A DNA stretch of 59,169 nt from a virus (Duplodnaviria; Caudoviricetes): positions 1 through 59,169 of IMG/VR virus record IMGVR_UViG_3300024328_000748. One strand, given 5' to 3'. A program made the translations under genes and the position numbers. The notes under the pieces were generated by a model. It saw only the letters and a program-made list of their open reading frames with translations, searched no databases and had not been told where the DNA came from. Positions within the stretch are counted from its first letter, which is position 1. Every line of letters starts with the position of its first letter. Shown here piece after piece: positions 21,818 to 56,219 of this stretch.

Positions 21818-22369
21818 ATGAACAAGATTAAATATTTTATTATAGCAACAGCGATACTATTAGCCAACTCGGCAATTGCTGGTACAGTACAACTAGATGC
21901 AGTTGTAATAAAAGTTGTACCACAATATTCAGAAGTACAAGTAACTACACCCATTAGAACATGTAAAATAGTAGATGTTCCAATTTATGGAAATACTGGT
22001 AAAGCACAAACAGGTGAAGTATTAGGTGGTGCAATTATTGGTGGTATACTAGGTAACCAAGTAGGCGGTGGTAAAGGACAAGATGCTGCAACTATACTAG
22101 GTGCAATTTTAGGGGCAGACTTTGCCAATAAAAAAGGCGGACAACAAACTATCGTTGGATACAAACAAGTAGAACAATGTGAACTTAGAAATAGAATAAC
22201 TACAAAACCTGGGCCTACAACATACAAAGTAACAGTTAAAATGCCTAGTATGGGAAGTAGACAAAACACAAGGAAAGAAGTGTATACATTTACAAGTGAA
22301 ACAAAATATTCAATTAACGAAAAAGTATTCGTAAGTGTTGATTATTCAATCACAGATGTATATAGATAA
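21818..22369 (+). CDS. Glycine-zipper 2TM exported protein
   Basis: Signal peptide MNKIKYFII...; GGAIIGGILGNQVGGGKG...GAILGA; AGGAG SD. Confidence 0.8.
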   Translation: MNKIKYFIIATAILLANSAIAGTVQLDAVVIKVVPQYSEVQVTTPIRTCKIVDVPIYGNTGKAQTGEVLGGAIIGGILGNQVGGGKGQDAATILGAILGADFANKKGGQQTIVGYKQVEQCELRNRITTKPGPTTYKVTVKMPSMGSRQNTRKEVYTFTSETKYSINEKVFVSVDYSITDVYR

Positions 22370-22389
22370 ATAAAAAGTAGAAAGAATAT

Positions 22390-22465
22390 GCCGGTATAGC
22401 TCAGTTGGTAGAGCAACTGATTTGTAATCAGTAGGTCACAAGTTCGAATCCTGTTACCGGCACCA
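22390..22465 (+). tRNA. tRNA-Thr(TGT)
   Basis: Cloverleaf with anticodon arm ACTGA-TTTGTAA-TCAGT, TTCGAAT T-loop and encoded CCA. Confidence 0.95.
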
Positions 22466-22564
22466 GATATAAAGAAAAGGCGATTGGACTGCCGGGCTGC
22501 AAAATGCCTTAAAACGGAAATACAAAAGAGAAACAATTTAATAAGTATAAATATAAAGAGACAT

Positions 22565-22640
22565 GGGGCTGTAGCTCAGTTGGGAGAGCGACTGGTTTGC
22601 AACCAGTAGGTCGTAGGTTCGATCCCTATCAGCTCCACCA
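22565..22640 (+). tRNA. tRNA-Ala(TGC)
   Basis: Cloverleaf with G3:U70 pair, anticodon loop TTTGCAA and encoded CCA. Confidence 0.96.
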
Positions 22641-50220: not shown

Positions 50221-50468
50221 TGTTACACACTGTAGAAGCACTAATAGACAAGATTAAAGCAATGCACGATAAAGCAATTTTACTACATAGACTTCGAAAT
50301 CAGTATTCAGAACATGCAGACCAAACATACGACAAAGCAGAATGCCAGTCTCTAATTGATGATATTCAATACATGGCTAAACTTATTTCAAACGATAAAC
50401 AAGGTGATGAGATTAAAACCGAGATGGAATACAAGAAATTTTTAAAGGATAACGAAAATGAGAATTGA
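50220..50468 (+). CDS. Hypothetical protein
   Basis: TAATG-coupled ORF with a GGAGG SD. Confidence 0.6.
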
Positions 50469-51588
50469 CCAAGATATTAAACTAGACTACAGTGATGTGT
50501 TAATTCGCCCAAAGCGTAGTACATTAAGTTCACGCAAACAAGTAAGACTTGAACGCAAGTTTAAATTTAGAAACAGCAGACACGAGTACGAAGGTATTCC
50601 TATTATGGCTGCTAATATGGATGGTGTTGGAACATTTGAACTAGCAGATGAACTTGCACAACAAAATATATTTACATGTTTAGTAAAAACATATTCAGTG
50701 GAAGAACTTGTAGATTTTTTTAACAATGATTATCCAGATAATAGAAGAACACAAAACATTGCTATGAGCATTGGTACAGGAACAATAGACTTTGATAAGT
50801 TAGAAGCCGTGTATAATAAAGTAAGCAATAAACTAAAATATGTATGTATGGATATTGCAAATGGTTACAGTGACCATTTTGCACAACACGTTAAAAAAGT
50901 ACGTGATAAATTTCCGAACTTAGTAATTATAGCAGGTAACGTAGTTACTGGAGAAATGACAGAGGAGTTAATTTTAAATGGAGCTGATATTGTTAAAGTG
51001 GGCATTGGTCCCGGGTCTGTTTGCACTACTAGGATTCAAACTGGTGTGGGATACCCGCAACTATCTGCGGTCATCGAATGCGCCGATGCAGCACACGGAC
51101 TTGGGGGTCACATTATTGCTGATGGTGGGTGCAGTTGCCCTGGAGATGTCGCTAAAGCCTTTGCTGCTGGAGCAGATTTTGTTATGCTTGGTGGCATGCT
51201 CGCTGGGCACGATGAAGGCGGCGGCGAAGTAATTACCCGATACTATGAAACTAGTGAACTAGAATATGAAGTTGGCGAGCATTTAAATAATCGCAAACAT
51301 AAAGTAGAAGAAAAGAAGTTTGTACAATTTTATGGAATGAGTTCAGATGCAGCCAACACAAAACATTTTGGCGGACTAAAAGACTATCGTTCAAGTGAAG
51401 GACGTGAAGTACTTGTGCCATATCGCGGTGCAGTTGCTAACACACTTCAAAATATATTAGGTGGAATTAGATCAACTTGCACATATGCAGGCGCAATGAA
51501 ACTCAAACAACTTAGTAAATGCACAACGTTTGTTCGTGTTAACAATCAGTTTAACAAAACATACGAAAGCACAACAACCAAAATATAA
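50458..51588 (+). CDS. guaC: GMP reductase
   Basis: [46 protein letters not shown]. Confidence 0.93.
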
Positions 51589-51672
51589 CTTTTAAACAGG
51601 TATGTATACAGTGCATATCGTCTTTGCATAAATAAGTATGGTTTATTGCGTTCATACGTGATAAATAAAAGT

Positions 51673-51919
51673 GTAATAAACAACAGCACAACGTTGTGTT
51701 GTTATTTACATATACAACGTAGTATAGAGCGACCTCGGCTCGGAAAAAAAGAGCGGCAGTTAGTGCCACGCTAACTGACTCTGGGAAAGACCAGGGCATA
51801 ACCCATGCCTTACAAGCGATACGTTAGCAGGTATCGTGGTAGCGGCCAGGAGAGACTGGCAAAGAAGAAACGGATGCTTTCCCAAAAACATCCCATATAA
51901 AACATTTAAGGAGAAGCCA
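51673..51919 (+). ncRNA. Candidate multi-hairpin structured RNA leader (about 250 nt)
   Basis: At least seven consecutive hairpins, two GARAGA-loop stems and an 8-nt long-range complement; begins 5 nt after TAAATA (51662-51667). Confidence 0.6.
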
Positions 51920-52114
51920 ATGGCAACCAATTTTTTTGGTGCATGGGCAGGACTCTTCAACGGATCACGTAGAACTCGTGTGAGATATGAGGCTGAACTG
52001 CTTACCTATGCAAAAACGGAATACACTAACGACTGGCAGTATGCATATCAGTATATGCTGGCCAACAAGGGCAAAGGCCCACAAACAGTATCACTGAAGG
52101 TGGGTGCAAAATAA
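51920..52114 (+). CDS. Small protein 1 (64 aa)
   Basis: TAAGGAG SD; start moved to MATNFF. Confidence 0.7.
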   Translation: MATNFFGAWAGLFNGSRRTRVRYEAELLTYAKTEYTNDWQYAYQYMLANKGKGPQTVSLKVGAK

Positions 52115-52284
52115 TGATTAAACGATTAATTAAAATGGCAAGAATGTCAACGTTATCAAGAGAAGAAAAATACTTAGCTAGTTCAACGGATCTAGTTGAG
52201 CTCGAAAGACGTCAAAGACTAATACAGAGAGGCCAAGCACCTTGGCAACCTGTAACTAATAAAAATTTAAGAGGATGGGTATAA
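52114..52284 (+). CDS. DUF3563-like small protein (56 aa, not in ORF track)
   Basis: EEKYLASSTDLVELERRQR resembles the AYL/DLE signature; TAATG coupling. Confidence 0.65.
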   Translation: MIKRLIKMARMSTLSREEKYLASSTDLVELERRQRLIQRGQAPWQPVTNKNLRGWV

Positions 52285-52469
52285 TGACTACAACAGTATT
52301 ATATAACACTACATGCAGAGTATGTGACACAATCAAAGTAGGTTTAGTAACAGCCGCTATGGCAGTATGGGCATTTGGCGAAAGTGCCGGAAGAGCAAGA
52401 GCAGCCGCAGAACTACACCGCCAAGGCTATACAAAAGAAGCTAAAGCATTAATGTTGAGTGACAACTAA
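52284..52469 (+). CDS. Small protein 3 (61 aa)
   Basis: TAATG coupling; GESAGRARAAAELHRQGY. Confidence 0.7.
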   Translation: MTTTVLYNTTCRVCDTIKVGLVTAAMAVWAFGESAGRARAAAELHRQGYTKEAKALMLSDN

Positions 52470-52603
52470 TGTTTAAGAGATTTTTAAAAGCAATGGAATA
52501 CAGAAGTTATTGCATGAGCATACAGCAACTTAGAAACATGGGCGAGTTTGAAAAAGCCAATGAAATATCTGAGTTCAAGCATAATATGTATCCTACACAC
52601 TGA
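52469..52603 (+). CDS. Small protein 4 (44 aa, not in ORF track)
   Basis: TAATG coupling; MFKRFLKAMEYRSY... Confidence 0.6.
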   Translation: MFKRFLKAMEYRSYCMSIQQLRNMGEFEKANEISEFKHNMYPTH

Positions 52604-52614
52604 GGAATAATAAA

Positions 52615-52788
52615 ATGAAACTGATCAGAACACTGAAAAACATTTTGAGTTCAAGCTATGATAGACAAGGTGCTCGTGCTTTACACAGCATGACTGACCG
52701 CGAACTAGCAGACATTGGAATATGTCGTGGTGATATCAATAGACTAGTTAGAACACAAGGTGAATTTAACAGAAAAAACCAAATGTAA
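52615..52788 (+). CDS. DUF1127 (YjiS-like) small protein (57 aa, not in ORF track)
   Basis: LHSMTDRELADIGICRGDI matches the LxxxxDxxLxDIGxxRxxI signature; GAGGA SD. Confidence 0.85.
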   Translation: MKLIRTLKNILSSSYDRQGARALHSMTDRELADIGICRGDINRLVRTQGEFNRKNQM

Positions 52789-52811
52789 CAACCTATAAAT
52801 ATCTTTACATT

Positions 52812-52848
52812 AAAAACCGTATATTGTTAACGCAGTGTACGGTTTTTT
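52812..52848 (+). terminator. Probable terminator closing the small-protein operon
   Basis: AAAAACCGTATATTG...CAGTGTACGGTTTTTT. Confidence 0.7.
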
Positions 52849-52881
52849 ATTATGTACAGTTTTAATCGGCTAAATACTATT

Positions 52882-53865
52882 ATGAGTAAAGTAAATCTAA
52901 TACCCGACTTAGTACAACAAATAACTGTAGCTAAAACGCAGGAAGAAAAGTATGAGCTTGTAAAAAAGTATGAAAAAGAAACATTAGTTAAGCGTATAAT
53001 GATTTTTGCATACAATCCATGGATAGATTTTAAATTACAAACTTTTACACCAAAGCACAGCGGTAAACAATTTGGCATGGGTATAAGTAAATTTATGCAC
53101 ATGTTCGAAGAAATTATTGAAGGACAACTTGATCCAAAGGATGCAGAGTTTGGATTTAATATGGCATTTTTGCATATAGAGACAAACCAAGCACCTGTTA
53201 TGCTTGCACTAATTAATCAGACATTAGACAAACAACTAGGACTTACTGCAGAAACAATAAACCGTGTGTGGCCAAATTCAATACACACATACCCATTACG
53301 TGTAGCATTAGAATCAAATTACACAAAATTTGATAACTTTCCTGCATCTGTGCAAACAGTAAGTGAAGGTCTACGTATAAATGTTATTGTATATGATGGA
53401 ACTGTATCTTTTAGACAAAAAGATGGCACTGTAATTGAAGGATGGAAATATTGGAATCAACAGTTTCTTAATCTTGCACAAGGGCAGAATACTGTATTTG
53501 ATGGACATGCCGTAATTGCAAAAAACAACAAGGTAGCTGAAACAGACAACGCCAAAGTATTAGAGGCCGATATTGAAGATATAAGATTTATATTTTGGGA
53601 TGTTATACGTTACGATGGATTTGTTCACGGCGAAGATACACGCATAGGGTACAACTGGCGTTACAACGGACTTGAACATATGATGATGTTAGCATATGCA
53701 AAGAACCCAGAACCATGTTATGATATATTAAAAGCAGAAATGGTTGGGTCCAAAGAACAATTAGAATCTACTATTAAAAACTATAGTAAGGCAGTTATAA
53801 AGTCGTTAGATAGTACTTGGTCTGATGGCTCAACTGAGAATGAAATTATTTTTTCTCAGAAATAA
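52882..53865 (+). CDS. Degenerate ATP-dependent DNA ligase-like protein
   Basis: T4 gp30-like order AYNP...ETINRVWP...FPASVQTVSEGLR...VFDGH...FIFWD, but motif I KxDG reads VSEG and there is no OB domain. Confidence 0.65.
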   Translation: MSKVNLIPDLVQQITVAKTQEEKYELVKKYEKETLVKRIMIFAYNPWIDFKLQTFTPKHSGKQFGMGISKFMHMFEEIIEGQLDPKDAEFGFNMAFLHIETNQAPVMLALINQTLDKQLGLTAETINRVWPNSIHTYPLRVALESNYTKFDNFPASVQTVSEGLRINVIVYDGTVSFRQKDGTVIEGWKYWNQQFLNLAQGQNTVFDGHAVIAKNNKVAETDNAKVLEADIEDIRFIFWDVIRYDGFVHGEDTRIGYNWRYNGLEHMMMLAYAKNPEPCYDILKAEMVGSKEQLESTIKNYSKAVIKSLDSTWSDGSTENEIIFSQK

Positions 53866-54169: not shown

Positions 54170-54535
54170 TTATTCCTCATTTTCAATTTTTATATGATCT
54201 TGATGCGCTTGTCCGCTTCTACCACATTCATAAACACAAACCGGTGATGGATTATCGCTATTCCATCCTTCAAAATTTATATACGATTTGTATATAGGGT
54301 TCTCCATAATTTCTTTCCATGTATATTTTCCTAAGTCATTAAAATTTGGATCGCTTTTTAAAAGTTCCTCTAATTTTTCATCAGGATGCTCTTTAAGTAT
54401 CCTCTTCCATCCTCGTATCCACACACAACATGGCCATAATTTACCACCCTCGTCTACTTCCCATTCCCTTCTATTACTAGTAGAGTTAGCATCATAACTA
54501 TGATTAAGACATTCGGGTACTATTGTTCCCTTCAT
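54170..54535 (-). CDS. Stand-alone SPASM/twitch-like Fe-S domain (copy 2)
   Basis: PEC...GKLWPCC...CVYEC. Confidence 0.7.
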   Translation of the reverse strand: MKGTIVPECLNHSYDANSTSNRREWEVDEGGKLWPCCVWIRGWKRILKEHPDEKLEELLKSDPNFNDLGKYTWKEIMENPIYKSYINFEGWNSDNPSPVCVYECGRSGQAHQDHIKIENEE

Positions 54536-55179
54536 ACTAATTTCTCCAATATTTTCTCACATACTTTTTTATTTTCAGAACTTATTAGACCGATGTGACG
54601 TCTATTAAATTTGAAAATAATATTAATATTATGTTTTTTTGCAAAGTTATGAGCTTCTTCTACTTCATGCCAGTTCCATTCAAATATAAGAAAGTGCCAT
54701 TCTATGTCAGCATCTGTTTTTGAAAATGCTATCATGTTATCCATAGCACGTTGCCAATTAACTCCTTCTCGGTATTTCCAATTTGAATCATGTGACATTC
54801 CATCTATACCAAAACATATAAATAATTTATTTCCATACTTGTTACCCATTCTAGTATACCATTCTGGATCTCGCAATCCACCATTTGTATTAATAATTAA
54901 TCGTCCTATACTTTCTTTAGAAAATATTCTATTAACAAAGTCTGTTATTCGGGGATGCATCATAGGGTCACCTAGTTCTCCGCAGAATTGTGCAATTGTT
55001 AAATTATCGGAGCAATTATTAACTATTTTGTTGAATAAATCATATGGCATATGAGTAGGAGTTAACCAATCTGCTGTTTCTCCAGTATCTGGATTAGTTC
55101 GTTGACAACTTCTACATTTAGCTTGACAGTATGTAGTAATAGCAAAATCAGTTTGAACCAGTTTTGGTTGATGTATCAT
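54532..55179 (-). CDS. Radical SAM core (copy 2)
   Basis: CQAKCRSC, CGELGDP, NTNGG, FGIDG. Confidence 0.85.
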   Translation of the reverse strand: MIHQPKLVQTDFAITTYCQAKCRSCQRTNPDTGETADWLTPTHMPYDLFNKIVNNCSDNLTIAQFCGELGDPMMHPRITDFVNRIFSKESIGRLIINTNGGLRDPEWYTRMGNKYGNKLFICFGIDGMSHDSNWKYREGVNWQRAMDNMIAFSKTDADIEWHFLIFEWNWHEVEEAHNFAKKHNINIIFKFNRRHIGLISSENKKVCEKILEKLV

Positions 55180-55532
55180 CTCTTTGTCAATTCCTTTTGA
55201 TATGCATCTGCTCTTGCCTTCCCACACTCTTTAATACACATAGGTGGCGGGTTATCACTATTCCACCCATCAAAATTTATATACGATTTATATATTGGAT
55301 TGTTTGTAATTTCTTCCCACGTATATTTGTTTAAATCATTAAAGTTTGGATTGGCTTTTAACATTTCGGCTAATTTGTCATCTTGTCTTATTGCCATTGA
55401 ATGATCCCACCCTTGTATCCAAACACAACACGGCCATAGTTTTCCAGCTTGATCTACTTCCCACTCTTTTCTCTTGCCACCGTCACTGTCTGAATCTAGT
55501 TTAATGCAATCCGGTACTACTTCATTTTTCAT
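55176..55532 (-). CDS. Stand-alone SPASM/twitch-like Fe-S domain (copy 1)
   Basis: PDC...GKLWPCC...CIKEC. Confidence 0.7.
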   Translation of the reverse strand: MKNEVVPDCIKLDSDSDGGKRKEWEVDQAGKLWPCCVWIQGWDHSMAIRQDDKLAEMLKANPNFNDLNKYTWEEITNNPIYKSYINFDGWNSDNPPPMCIKECGKARADAYQKELTKR

Positions 55533-56172
55533 CTTTGATTATCCTCGACAAAATTTTATTACATTCTATTTTATTTTCTTTGCTTATTAATCCGTGTTTC
55601 CTATAGTTATATTTAAATGCAATTTCAATATCAGCTTCAAGTGAAAAATCATAGGCTTGTTGAACTTCTTGCCAATTCCAGTCAAATATAATATAATGCC
55701 ACTCAGTTCTTCCGCCTGATTGGTTGAACGCTATCATGTTATCCATTGCTCGTTGCCAATCAACACCTTCTCTGTATTTCCAATTAGTGTCATGTGACAT
55801 GCCATCAATACCAAAAAACATTTGTAATTTTCTTCCATATTTTTCAGCCATTGTAGCATACCAGTCTGGAGTTCTTAGGCCACCATTTGTATTAATAAGT
55901 AAACTAACTAAATTTGGATGGTCAAATATACGATCAACAAAATCTGTTATTCTGGGATGCATCATAGGGTCACCAAGTTCTCCACAAAATTGTGCCATAT
56001 ATAAATCATGTGGAGATTTGTTAAGTATATTATCAAACACTGGATAAGACATATGAGTTGGTGTTAACCAACTATTAACCTCTCCAGTATCTTCATTGGT
56101 TCGTTGACAACTTCTACATTTAGCTTGACAGTATGTAGTAATAGCAAAGTCAATCTGAGTGTTTAATTTCAT
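55522..56172 (-). CDS. Radical SAM core (copy 1)
   Basis: CQAKCRSC etc.; TAAATA-N5-ATG. Confidence 0.85.
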   Translation of the reverse strand: MKLNTQIDFAITTYCQAKCRSCQRTNEDTGEVNSWLTPTHMSYPVFDNILNKSPHDLYMAQFCGELGDPMMHPRITDFVDRIFDHPNLVSLLINTNGGLRTPDWYATMAEKYGRKLQMFFGIDGMSHDTNWKYREGVDWQRAMDNMIAFNQSGGRTEWHYIIFDWNWQEVQQAYDFSLEADIEIAFKYNYRKHGLISKENKIECNKILSRIIKDEK

Positions 56173-56219
56173 ACATGTATTTATCATAAATAAGTATGTA
56201 CTTAATTAAAGGATAACAC

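Follow-up and report, generated by a model that had tools for sequence, protein, structure and literature searches.

A large family of structured 5' leader RNAs upstream of mini-protein operons in phages

What is encoded in the 331-nt gap that separates a GMP-reductase-like gene (50458-51588, PF00478) from a run of five tiny open reading frames (ORFs) in a viral genome fragment? The stretch of DNA analysed here (the window; 59,169 nucleotides (nt)) is the whole of IMG/VR viral record IMGVR_UViG_3300024328_000748, a 59-kb fragment with an estimated completeness of 17%. To our knowledge, few structured regulatory RNAs have been described in phages, and essentially none in uncultured marine jumbo phages. 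A sequence-only reading had proposed that the gap holds a leader RNA with a series of stem-loops, two of which share a GARAGA loop on stems of swapped sequence, and a long-range pairing of 8 nt. We find that the stretch is a real, strongly conserved and folded leader RNA of the + strand (Table 1). In its anatomy, a NATAAATA promoter-like motif is followed by 5' hairpins that may be absent, an H-type pseudoknot with an A-rich third loop, a hairpin unit present in one to four copies, further accessory hairpins in some members and a hairpin whose loop is rich in pyrimidines (UUCCY); an A-rich linker then leads to a strong Shine-Dalgarno (SD) sequence and the tiny ORFs.

Table 1 Features of the leader and its operon, in window coordinates (MFE, minimum free energy).
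Feature	Position	Strand	Basis
Promoter-like GATAAATA (T4-late-like NATAAATA), then conserved AAAGTGTAA	51660..51667	+	Motif; invariant in relatives
5' hairpin 1 (core stem 51682-51690 / 51695-51703)	51677..51708	+	MFE fold, self-complement; double changes at 4/8 pairs
5' hairpin 2 (UAUAC / GUAUA)	51711..51726	+	MFE fold; absent from the list of the sequence-only reading
H-type pseudoknot; stem 1 (S1) 51727-51730 with 51738-51741	51727..51755	+	62 leaders
Pseudoknot stem 2 (S2); A-run 51744-50 is loop 3	51733-51736 with 51751-51753 plus 51755	+	
Inserted accessory hairpin CAGUUAGUG-CCA-CGCUAACUG	51757..51777	+	97.8% paired; found only in the window's subfamily
H1, hairpin unit 1: CUGG-GAAAGA-CCAG	51781..51794	+	Every pair with double changes (99 relatives)
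H2: GGCAU-AACCC-AUGCC, then conserved UUACAAG	51795..51809	+	98% paired family-wide
H3, variable accessory hairpin GCGAUAC / GUAUCGU	51816..51837	+	Double changes at 5/7 pairs (e.g. CG 9 / UA 9)
H4, hairpin unit 2: GCCAG-GAGAGA-CUGGC	51845..51860	+	100% paired, double changes at 4/5 pairs (19 relatives)
H5: GGAUG / CAUCC, pyrimidine-rich loop CUUUCCCAAAAA	51872..51893	+	MFE fold
SD AAGGAGA (GGAG 51910-51913) and ATG of first ORF at 51920	51908..51922	+	GGAG nearly invariant in aligned leaders
Operon of five tiny ORFs	51920..52788	+	ORF calls, Pfam
ORF1, 64 aa, 'LTYAKTEYxxDWxYAY' family	51920-52114	+	No Pfam
DUF3563 ORF	52114-52284	+	Pfam
Third tiny ORF	52275-52469	+	
Fourth tiny ORF	52469-52603	+	
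DUF1127 ORF	52615-52788	+	PF06568, E 8.8e-9

The MFE fold of 51673-51925 (253 nt) has an energy of -75.8 kcal/mol, compared with -56.6 +/- 4.3 kcal/mol for shuffled sequences (z -4.51; 0/200 shuffles as stable). All the stem-loops named in the sequence-only reading lie where it had placed them and are reproduced by this fold, and paired columns covary in alignments of both 19 close relatives and 99 family members. For the 19 closest relatives, an independent MAFFT alignment in which 61 pairs were examined has 96.4% of cells pairing (92.6% in shuffles) and double-sided changes in 21 pairs, as against 5.7 in shuffles (0/500 reach 21). Compensatory changes in this set fall within helices 51682-51703, 51711-51726, 51757-51777, 51781-51794, 51816-51837 and 51845-51860; the helices at 51795-51809 and 51872-51893 are nearly invariant. 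Among the 99 relatives, 93.7% of cells are paired (76.6% in shuffles) and double changes affect 24 of 28 pairs, a result that 0/500 shuffles reach in an alignment that was fitted to a covariance model and so leans towards it. G-U pairs indicate the strand, since they occur on the + strand only (for example, GU 40 at one pair and UG 20 at another).

The RNA is widespread in viral contigs. Searching these with ORF1 recovered 20 loci whose intergenic DNA is 80-96% identical to the leader and whose ORF1 protein is 57-95% identical. An exact pattern of the 5' domain retrieved 73 stretches in viral contigs, a pattern with the pseudoknot stems left free gave 83 matches, and an exact 20-nt pattern from the commonest 3' hairpin was found in at least 120 viral contigs. 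With a covariance model built from 62 leaders we obtained 99 matches in 98 sources, one per source plus a weak extra in L207; the window has a single match (51727-51922; 112 bits, E 1.4e-22). Of five large contigs (200-306 kb) scanned with the 3' hairpin pattern, three contained exactly one copy and two contained none by this pattern. The element is therefore a single-copy orthologous locus of a large marine-phage clade. The extra match in L207 (5843-5967; 23.8 bits, E 0.0076) lies ~700 nt downstream of the main copy and begins with a GAGC...GCUCAGAAAAA-like 5' domain. Separately, the 5' pattern matched two contigs among bacterial and archaeal species-representative genomes, both without the rest of the leader, and we consider these to be chance.

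Across the 13 nearest relatives, the leader core is 89.9-98.2% identical, compared with 66.7-95.8% for the ORF1 DNA behind it, and in the most divergent ORF1 case (L165) the values are 93.5% and 66.7%. The leader is thus better conserved than the coding DNA that follows, which is a sign of selection on the leader itself. The family is also modular, with 2 to 8 helices per leader. Its minimal form measures 91 nt from pseudoknot to ATG and is made up of the pseudoknot domain, a single hairpin unit and the hairpin with the pyrimidine loop. Up to five more hairpins are inserted in longer leaders, and the form in the window is among the longest.

The sequence-only reading had recognized no known Rfam family, and this was borne out: a scan of the whole window with Rfam 15 returned only two tRNAs at gathering score. 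At E values up to 10, the region 51500-52100 gave six matches (E 0.85-7.6), all far below gathering score, and the loci of 10 relatives gave none. A match of the freshwater-2 motif (RF02980) to relative L275 (17.8 bits, E ~1-2, gathering score 49.9) spans a hairpin, the linker, the SD sequence and the AUG; we attribute this likeness to chance, as the SD/AUG part and a single generic hairpin supply the score, the middle is skipped, and the window has no such match. As far as listings and abstracts tell, we found no printed description of this leader family. It is new and large, belongs to no catalogued RNA family, and is in kind a structured 5' leader.

Judged by the DnaB-like helicase of the window, its closest cultured relatives are the PA5oct group of Pseudomonas jumbo phages (51.6% amino acid identity) and Agrobacterium phage Atu_ph07. 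Among 50,697 GenBank phage records, a set from which those very close to the window may be missing, there was no cultured-phage DNA match to the leader region (blastn with the window leader, megablast with 6 kb around it and blastn with a type-B leader), nor any tblastn match to ORF1.

The two GARAGA loops had been read as repeated protein-binding sites on swapped stems. As to the loops, they are copies of a conserved hairpin unit that occurs at least once in 119/120 leaders (1-4 each; mean 1.88, compared with 0.225 in shuffles), a distribution that would fit repeated recognition sites. As to the stems, the swap is particular to the window's subfamily and is incidental, since unit stems covary freely across the rest of the family. 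The unit loop is of N-A-N-A-G-A type, has 6-8 nt, ends in A-G-A and closes on C (GAAAGA 66, GAUAGA 30, AAAAGA 28, GAGAGA 22, CAAAGA 12, AAACAGA 9 and AAGAGA 8), and UGAC precedes each unit in many relatives. The loop of H1 is GGAAAGAC in 59/99 relatives and GGAUAGAC in 25/99. Elsewhere in the window there is no sign of a regulon of such units: both strands together hold seven, two of them in the leader, compared with 6.9 in shuffles.

Loops of this kind might instead make the leader a target or sponge of a host CsrA/RsmA-type regulator, whose GGA targets lie in hairpin loops and at SD sequences. GGA is present at the H1 stem-loop junction in 86/99 members; the majority of H4 loops have it too, as does the SD sequence AAGGAGA. 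Pseudomonas and Agrobacterium are the hosts of the cultured phages closest by helicase. However, the invariant part of the loop is A-N-A-G-A-C and not GGA. The 12 units with CAAAGA loops are without GGA, the 28 AAAAGA loops rely on the GG of the adjoining stem, and the loop context is unlike the CsrA consensus. We therefore regard a CsrA-type partner as improbable.

The remaining hairpins differ in how strictly they are kept. The accessory hairpin at 51757-51777 has a different sequence with the same fold in L121 (three pairs double-changed) and is absent in 4/19 close relatives. H2 shows double changes at 4/5 pairs family-wide (e.g. GC 54, CG 23, AU 3). At H5, most relatives have UGCUU-YCCUC-AAGCA and one, L296, has a GGAUUC/GAAUCC stem (by eye); the near-invariance of H5 across the family is partly due to one search pattern having fixed it. 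The H5 loop is always pyrimidine-rich, with CUUUCCCAAAAA in the window and UYCCUC, CUCCUC or UUCCUAAAA elsewhere.

The sequence-only reading had also paired 51782-51789 (TGGGAAAG), in H1, with 51877-51884 (CTTTCCCA), in H5. The complementarity is exact, but the pairing neither covaries nor is conserved, and dinucleotide shuffling of the 247 nt yields at least one such 8-mer pair in 327 of 2000 cases (16%). In the nearest-neighbour model, the fold with the 8-nt pairing and the fold with local hairpins have nearly equal predicted energies of -61.1 and -62.1 kcal/mol, with pair probabilities of ~0.53 and 0.47. RNAalifold on the 19 close relatives prefers the 8-nt pairing; in that set 6/8 of its pairs never vary and none covaries. 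In the wider family, the central loop base is changed without compensation in 28/99 relatives, and at least three expected H1:H5 pairs appear in the predicted ensemble of 13/89 evaluated relatives, a count that leaves out 10/99 rows, the window among them, in which the H1 stretch exceeded 30 nt on account of an inserted hairpin. On these grounds we reject the pairing as a conserved family feature; judged by the folding model, it may be an alternative fold specific to the subfamily and not a defining feature of the RNA.

At the 5' end, hairpin 1 is a dispensable accessory, being missing in 4/19 close relatives and represented by a different hairpin sequence in two more. Hairpin 2 is present in 13 sequences, where its pairing is 100% and double changes affect 2/5 pairs (AU 7 / GC 6). 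The domain that follows had been drawn as a nested GCTC/GAGC hairpin (51738-51754; columns 12-15 with 25-28), and here the proposal gave way to another structure. Across 62 leaders this hairpin has no double changes, and four changes at its G (column 27) are uncompensated at the proposed partner and compensated at column 8. By comparison, column pair 1/15 is GC in 42 leaders and AU in 20, and pair 8/27 is CG in 58, UA in 3 and AU in 1, with none unpaired in either. Both stems therefore carry compensatory change and the nested hairpin does not, from which it follows that the 5' domain is an H-type pseudoknot. Its consensus has stem 1 RAGC/GCUY, a stem 2 formed by loop CCUCA with downstream UGAG, and six or seven conserved A in loop 3; further compensated S2 variants are CAUCA/UGAUU, CUUCA/UGAAG, CUUCA/UGAAU, CACC/GGUG and UUCCA/UGGAU. 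The G/A-C/U switch separates near-identical leaders (e.g. L126 and L163) and so arose more than once. In the window's subfamily S2 is shorter (3-4 pairs) because G 51737 and A 51750 do not pair.

A small pseudoknot with an A-rich loop raises the idea of a metabolite-binding riboswitch like the preQ1-I and SAM-II classes, to which the topology (hairpin, A-run and 3' pairing into the loop) and 32 nearly invariant nt would correspond. Against this, Rfam riboswitch models give no match, no expression platform was found (neither a terminator nor conserved SD pairing), and 2 to 8 helices would be unusual for an aptamer. Moreover, among the 3'-pattern matches listed, the strict pseudoknot pattern is missing in 86/111 relatives, a few of them with variant pseudoknots, and most of the relatives listed have a plain hairpin and ACACAUAGACAC in its place before the same gene family. 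With plain hairpins replacing it in most such relatives, the pseudoknot cannot be essential to what all members share. A riboswitch is the least probable of the readings we considered.

Upstream of the leader, an (A)TAAATA-type motif precedes 120/125 distinct leaders. The 8-mers ending at the motif are TATAAATA in 58 cases, GATAAATA, the form in the window, in 31, AATAAATA in 16 and others in 15. The exact TATAAATA equals the T4 late-promoter consensus, which sits at -10 without a -35 element. Over the whole window the motif is not enriched (10 found, 11.35 expected). It is this motif that suggests a late promoter, and from the sequence we infer a transcript start near 51673. Promoter tables for PA5oct (PMC7318152) might bear on this reading. 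Both tRNA genes of the window (22390-22462 and 22565-22637) have their own NATAAATA motif 12-18 nt upstream (22365-22372 and 22546-22553). Upstream of the promoter-like motif, 51600-51640 contains a small covarying hairpin, GGTATG...CATATC (GCTATG...CATAGC in relatives), followed by GTCTTTGCA, which may mark the end of the GMP-reductase transcript. In many type-B relatives, an inverted repeat AGGRCAGT...CTGTACTAT abuts TATAAATA.

The locus also appears in RNA libraries. Near-identical sequence was present in 20/22 listed runs (15 recorded as RNA; 17 studies; labelled seawater, marine or aquatic metagenomes), and contigs of four RNA-library runs cover leader and operon, in libraries of a kind that can contain DNA. 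Record 8 of run X1 covers 51834-52790 with 0 differences and record 20 of run X6 covers 51695-51863. Positions 51610-52819 are covered in all four runs, and in X1 and X2 depth is low or nil over 51247-51609 and 52820-53303; the greater depth over the leader is due to contigs with variant sequences of relatives. These contigs document presence in RNA libraries and are not proof of transcription, transcript ends or levels. Contigs of X1 and X7 stop at 52790, two bases past the last ORF stop, and continue in adapter-like letters; neither contig ends nor uncovered parts are evidence for where transcripts end. Downstream of 52790 lie TATAAATA (52794-52801), a 16-pair hairpin (52812-52847) and the ATG of the next ORF (52852).

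What follows the leader is similarly recurrent. Among 122 distinct first ORFs, 99 fit the ORF1 family by motif, most of 20 classed as 'other' visibly belong to the same family (two of the 'other' are DUF3563-like) and three are DUF1127-like. By regular-expression labels, ORF1-family members occur in 102/111 operons (missing in 9) and a DUF1127-motif ORF in at least 71/111 (not found in about a third). ORF1 has no Pfam match in 70 members, no PHROG and nothing in the ESM Atlas, its only relatives being unnamed metagenome proteins, and AlphaFold predicts three helices in a weak model (pLDDT 64.1). A C-terminal motif, N-L-(K/R/T)-G-W-(V/I), is shared by DUF3563-like, DUF1127-like and some ORF1-family proteins; in the window it ends the DUF3563 ORF (52260-52284, NKNLRGWV). 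The same tail on unrelated mini-proteins suggests that they share a partner or a sorting signal.

Beyond the operon, the ORF at 52852-53865 has a weak match to an ATP-dependent DNA ligase PHROG (phrog_114, E 6.8e-16) and no Pfam match, and such a ligase-like ORF follows the leader operon in 58/189 loci. On the minus strand, 54170-56187 contains radical SAM ORFs (54532-55227 and 55522-56187, PF04055) and a Cys-rich ORF of 121 aa (54170-54535). The idea of a RiPP system combining tiny peptides and radical SAM enzymes was rejected, as radical SAM genes are found in only 4/55 loci with at least 4.5 kb downstream.

How might such a leader act? The SD sequence is partly paired in the predicted ensemble (GGAG unpaired probability 0.17-0.60), and no conserved SD-sequestering helix was found in the leaders, so a translational switch is not evident. 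Neither leader nor operon has a + strand terminator-like site; within 51000-53000 there is a single one, at 52812-52847. One explanation is that the leader is a passive stabilizer and translation enhancer with no specific partner, in which 5' structures block decay that depends on the 5' end and the A-rich linker is a ribosome landing site, which would allow the tiny proteins to be produced in large amounts late in infection. Pseudoknot and plain hairpins are interchangeable at the 5' end, as if any stable structure sufficed; the A-rich linker before the SD sequence is predicted to be open, and a leader with neither terminator nor SD-sequestering helix is what this explanation expects. It leaves unexplained, however, why near-invariant loops (GGAAAGAC, UUCCY and UUACAAG) sit on freely varying stems and why the leader is conserved above coding DNA. 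We consider passive enhancement unlikely, though the strongest of the rivals.

Instead we tentatively favour a protein-bound leader acting in cis. We give a probability of roughly 0.4 to the joint reading that the window derives from an uncultured marine jumbo phage with the leader in a late-type transcription unit, and that the leader is a cis-acting, protein-bound RNA controlling the stability or translation of its own operon. The cis-acting role is suggested by the motif upstream of nearly all leaders, by the way all of them run into an SD sequence and ATG, by the lack of a + strand terminator-like site in the window's leader and operon, by the single copy per locus and by the recurrent ORF1-family and DUF1127 neighbours (DUF1127 and DUF3563 being Pfam-confirmed in the window). 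Under this proposal the RNA would act on the mRNA to which it belongs: its pseudoknot or hairpins at the 5' terminus would protect that end, and the repeated units would be binding sites for a small RNA-binding protein whose binding would set mRNA stability or translation, possibly by determining whether the pyrimidine-rich loop pairs with the purine-rich loops or with the SD site. The most plausible candidate binders, as a guess from neighbourhood and analogy, are the operon's own products, namely the DUF1127 protein and/or the ORF1 family. The best precedent is CcaF1, a DUF1127 protein reported to bind, and to change the stability of, the hairpin RNAs (CcsR, 'cuckoo') transcribed together with its gene (PMC8034643). 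Against the proposal count the operons in which the ORF1 family or a DUF1127-motif ORF is missing and the replacement of the pseudoknot in most 3'-pattern relatives.

The DUF1127 neighbour also allows a trans-acting alternative, in which a multi-hairpin RNA is cut from the mRNA, in the way that CcsR RNAs arise from transcripts of DUF1127 genes, and would persist as a sponge for a host RNA-binding protein or, through its pyrimidine-rich loop, as an anti-SD regulator. According to PMC8034643, CcsR RNAs with anti-SD loops adjoin DUF1127 genes, those of S. meliloti apparently derive from the 5' UTR of such a gene, and CcaF1 binds them. The window likewise has a DUF1127 ORF in the operon, adjacent on the same putative transcript, and a UUCCY loop is present in nearly all members of the family. 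Yet Rfam models, including those of ar14/cuckoo type, give nothing at E up to 10; each leader has one pyrimidine-rich loop (CUUUCCCAAAAA or UYCCUC) and not CCUCCUCCC; and both the processing site and the separate RNA are putative, contigs being unable to show ends. A trans-acting RNA is accordingly less probable than passive enhancement and, in our view, quite unlikely. Slightly less probable again is a bolder version, a phage form of the bacterial DUF1127/CcsR module: the leader, once cut off, would accumulate late as a stable multi-hairpin RNA and, with the co-encoded DUF1127, DUF3563 and 'AKTEY' mini-proteins, would redirect RNA decay or translation in the host, by sponging up protein or by anti-SD regulation. 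If true, the DUF1127/CcsR-like module would be a viral RNA-plus-miniprotein takeover device conserved throughout a large marine jumbo-phage clade. Whatever probability the five readings of the leader (cis-acting and protein-bound, passive, trans-acting, CsrA-type and riboswitch) leave over falls to something else.

The leader was found in at least 120 viral contigs, its pairs clearly covary, and it combines a pseudoknot with a loop motif that recurs; it is a candidate new Rfam family and bears on the post-transcriptional control of late genes in giant phages. The DUF1127 domain has been linked to RNA binding only recently, and leader and mini-protein operon together form a concrete RNA-protein system for asking what DUF1127-type mini-proteins do.

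Several known systems share parts of this design. In the T4 gene 32 mRNA leader, a 5' pseudoknot nucleates autoregulatory protein binding. It resembles the marine leader in having an H-type pseudoknot near the 5' end of a phage mRNA and in the autogenous logic proposed here, but the marine leader precedes tiny proteins instead of a single-strand DNA-binding protein and is structured throughout instead of open. Csr/Rsm sponges and CsrA-bound leaders similarly have several hairpins with GGA in the loop and GGA in the SD sequence; the marine RNA differs in its ANAGAC loop core, in units without GGA, in having 1-4 units and in being a leader and not a free small RNA. Lambda nut boxB, to which the sequence-only reading had loosely likened the loops, also has small purine-rich hairpin loops in an RNA just behind a phage promoter. 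This analogy fails on loop size, the units having hexa- to octaloops (6-8 nt) and not GNRA-like pentaloops, and they are repeated up to four times. For another DUF1127 gene, PMC12218461 reports a uORF-dependent attenuator, which is a different kind of leader control. By analogy, the closest counterpart would be the bacterial DUF1127/CcsR ('cuckoo') arrangement (Rfam ar14 group, Alphaproteobacteria), which likewise joins a multi-hairpin RNA to a DUF1127 gene and has a pyrimidine-rich, anti-SD-like loop. The two have no sequence or model similarity, and the phage leader is set apart by its mostly purine-rich loops (NANAGA), by a single pyrimidine loop of UUUCCCA or UUYCCUC where CcsR has CCUCCUCCC, and by being viral, placed behind a T4-late-like motif and often equipped with a 5' pseudoknot.
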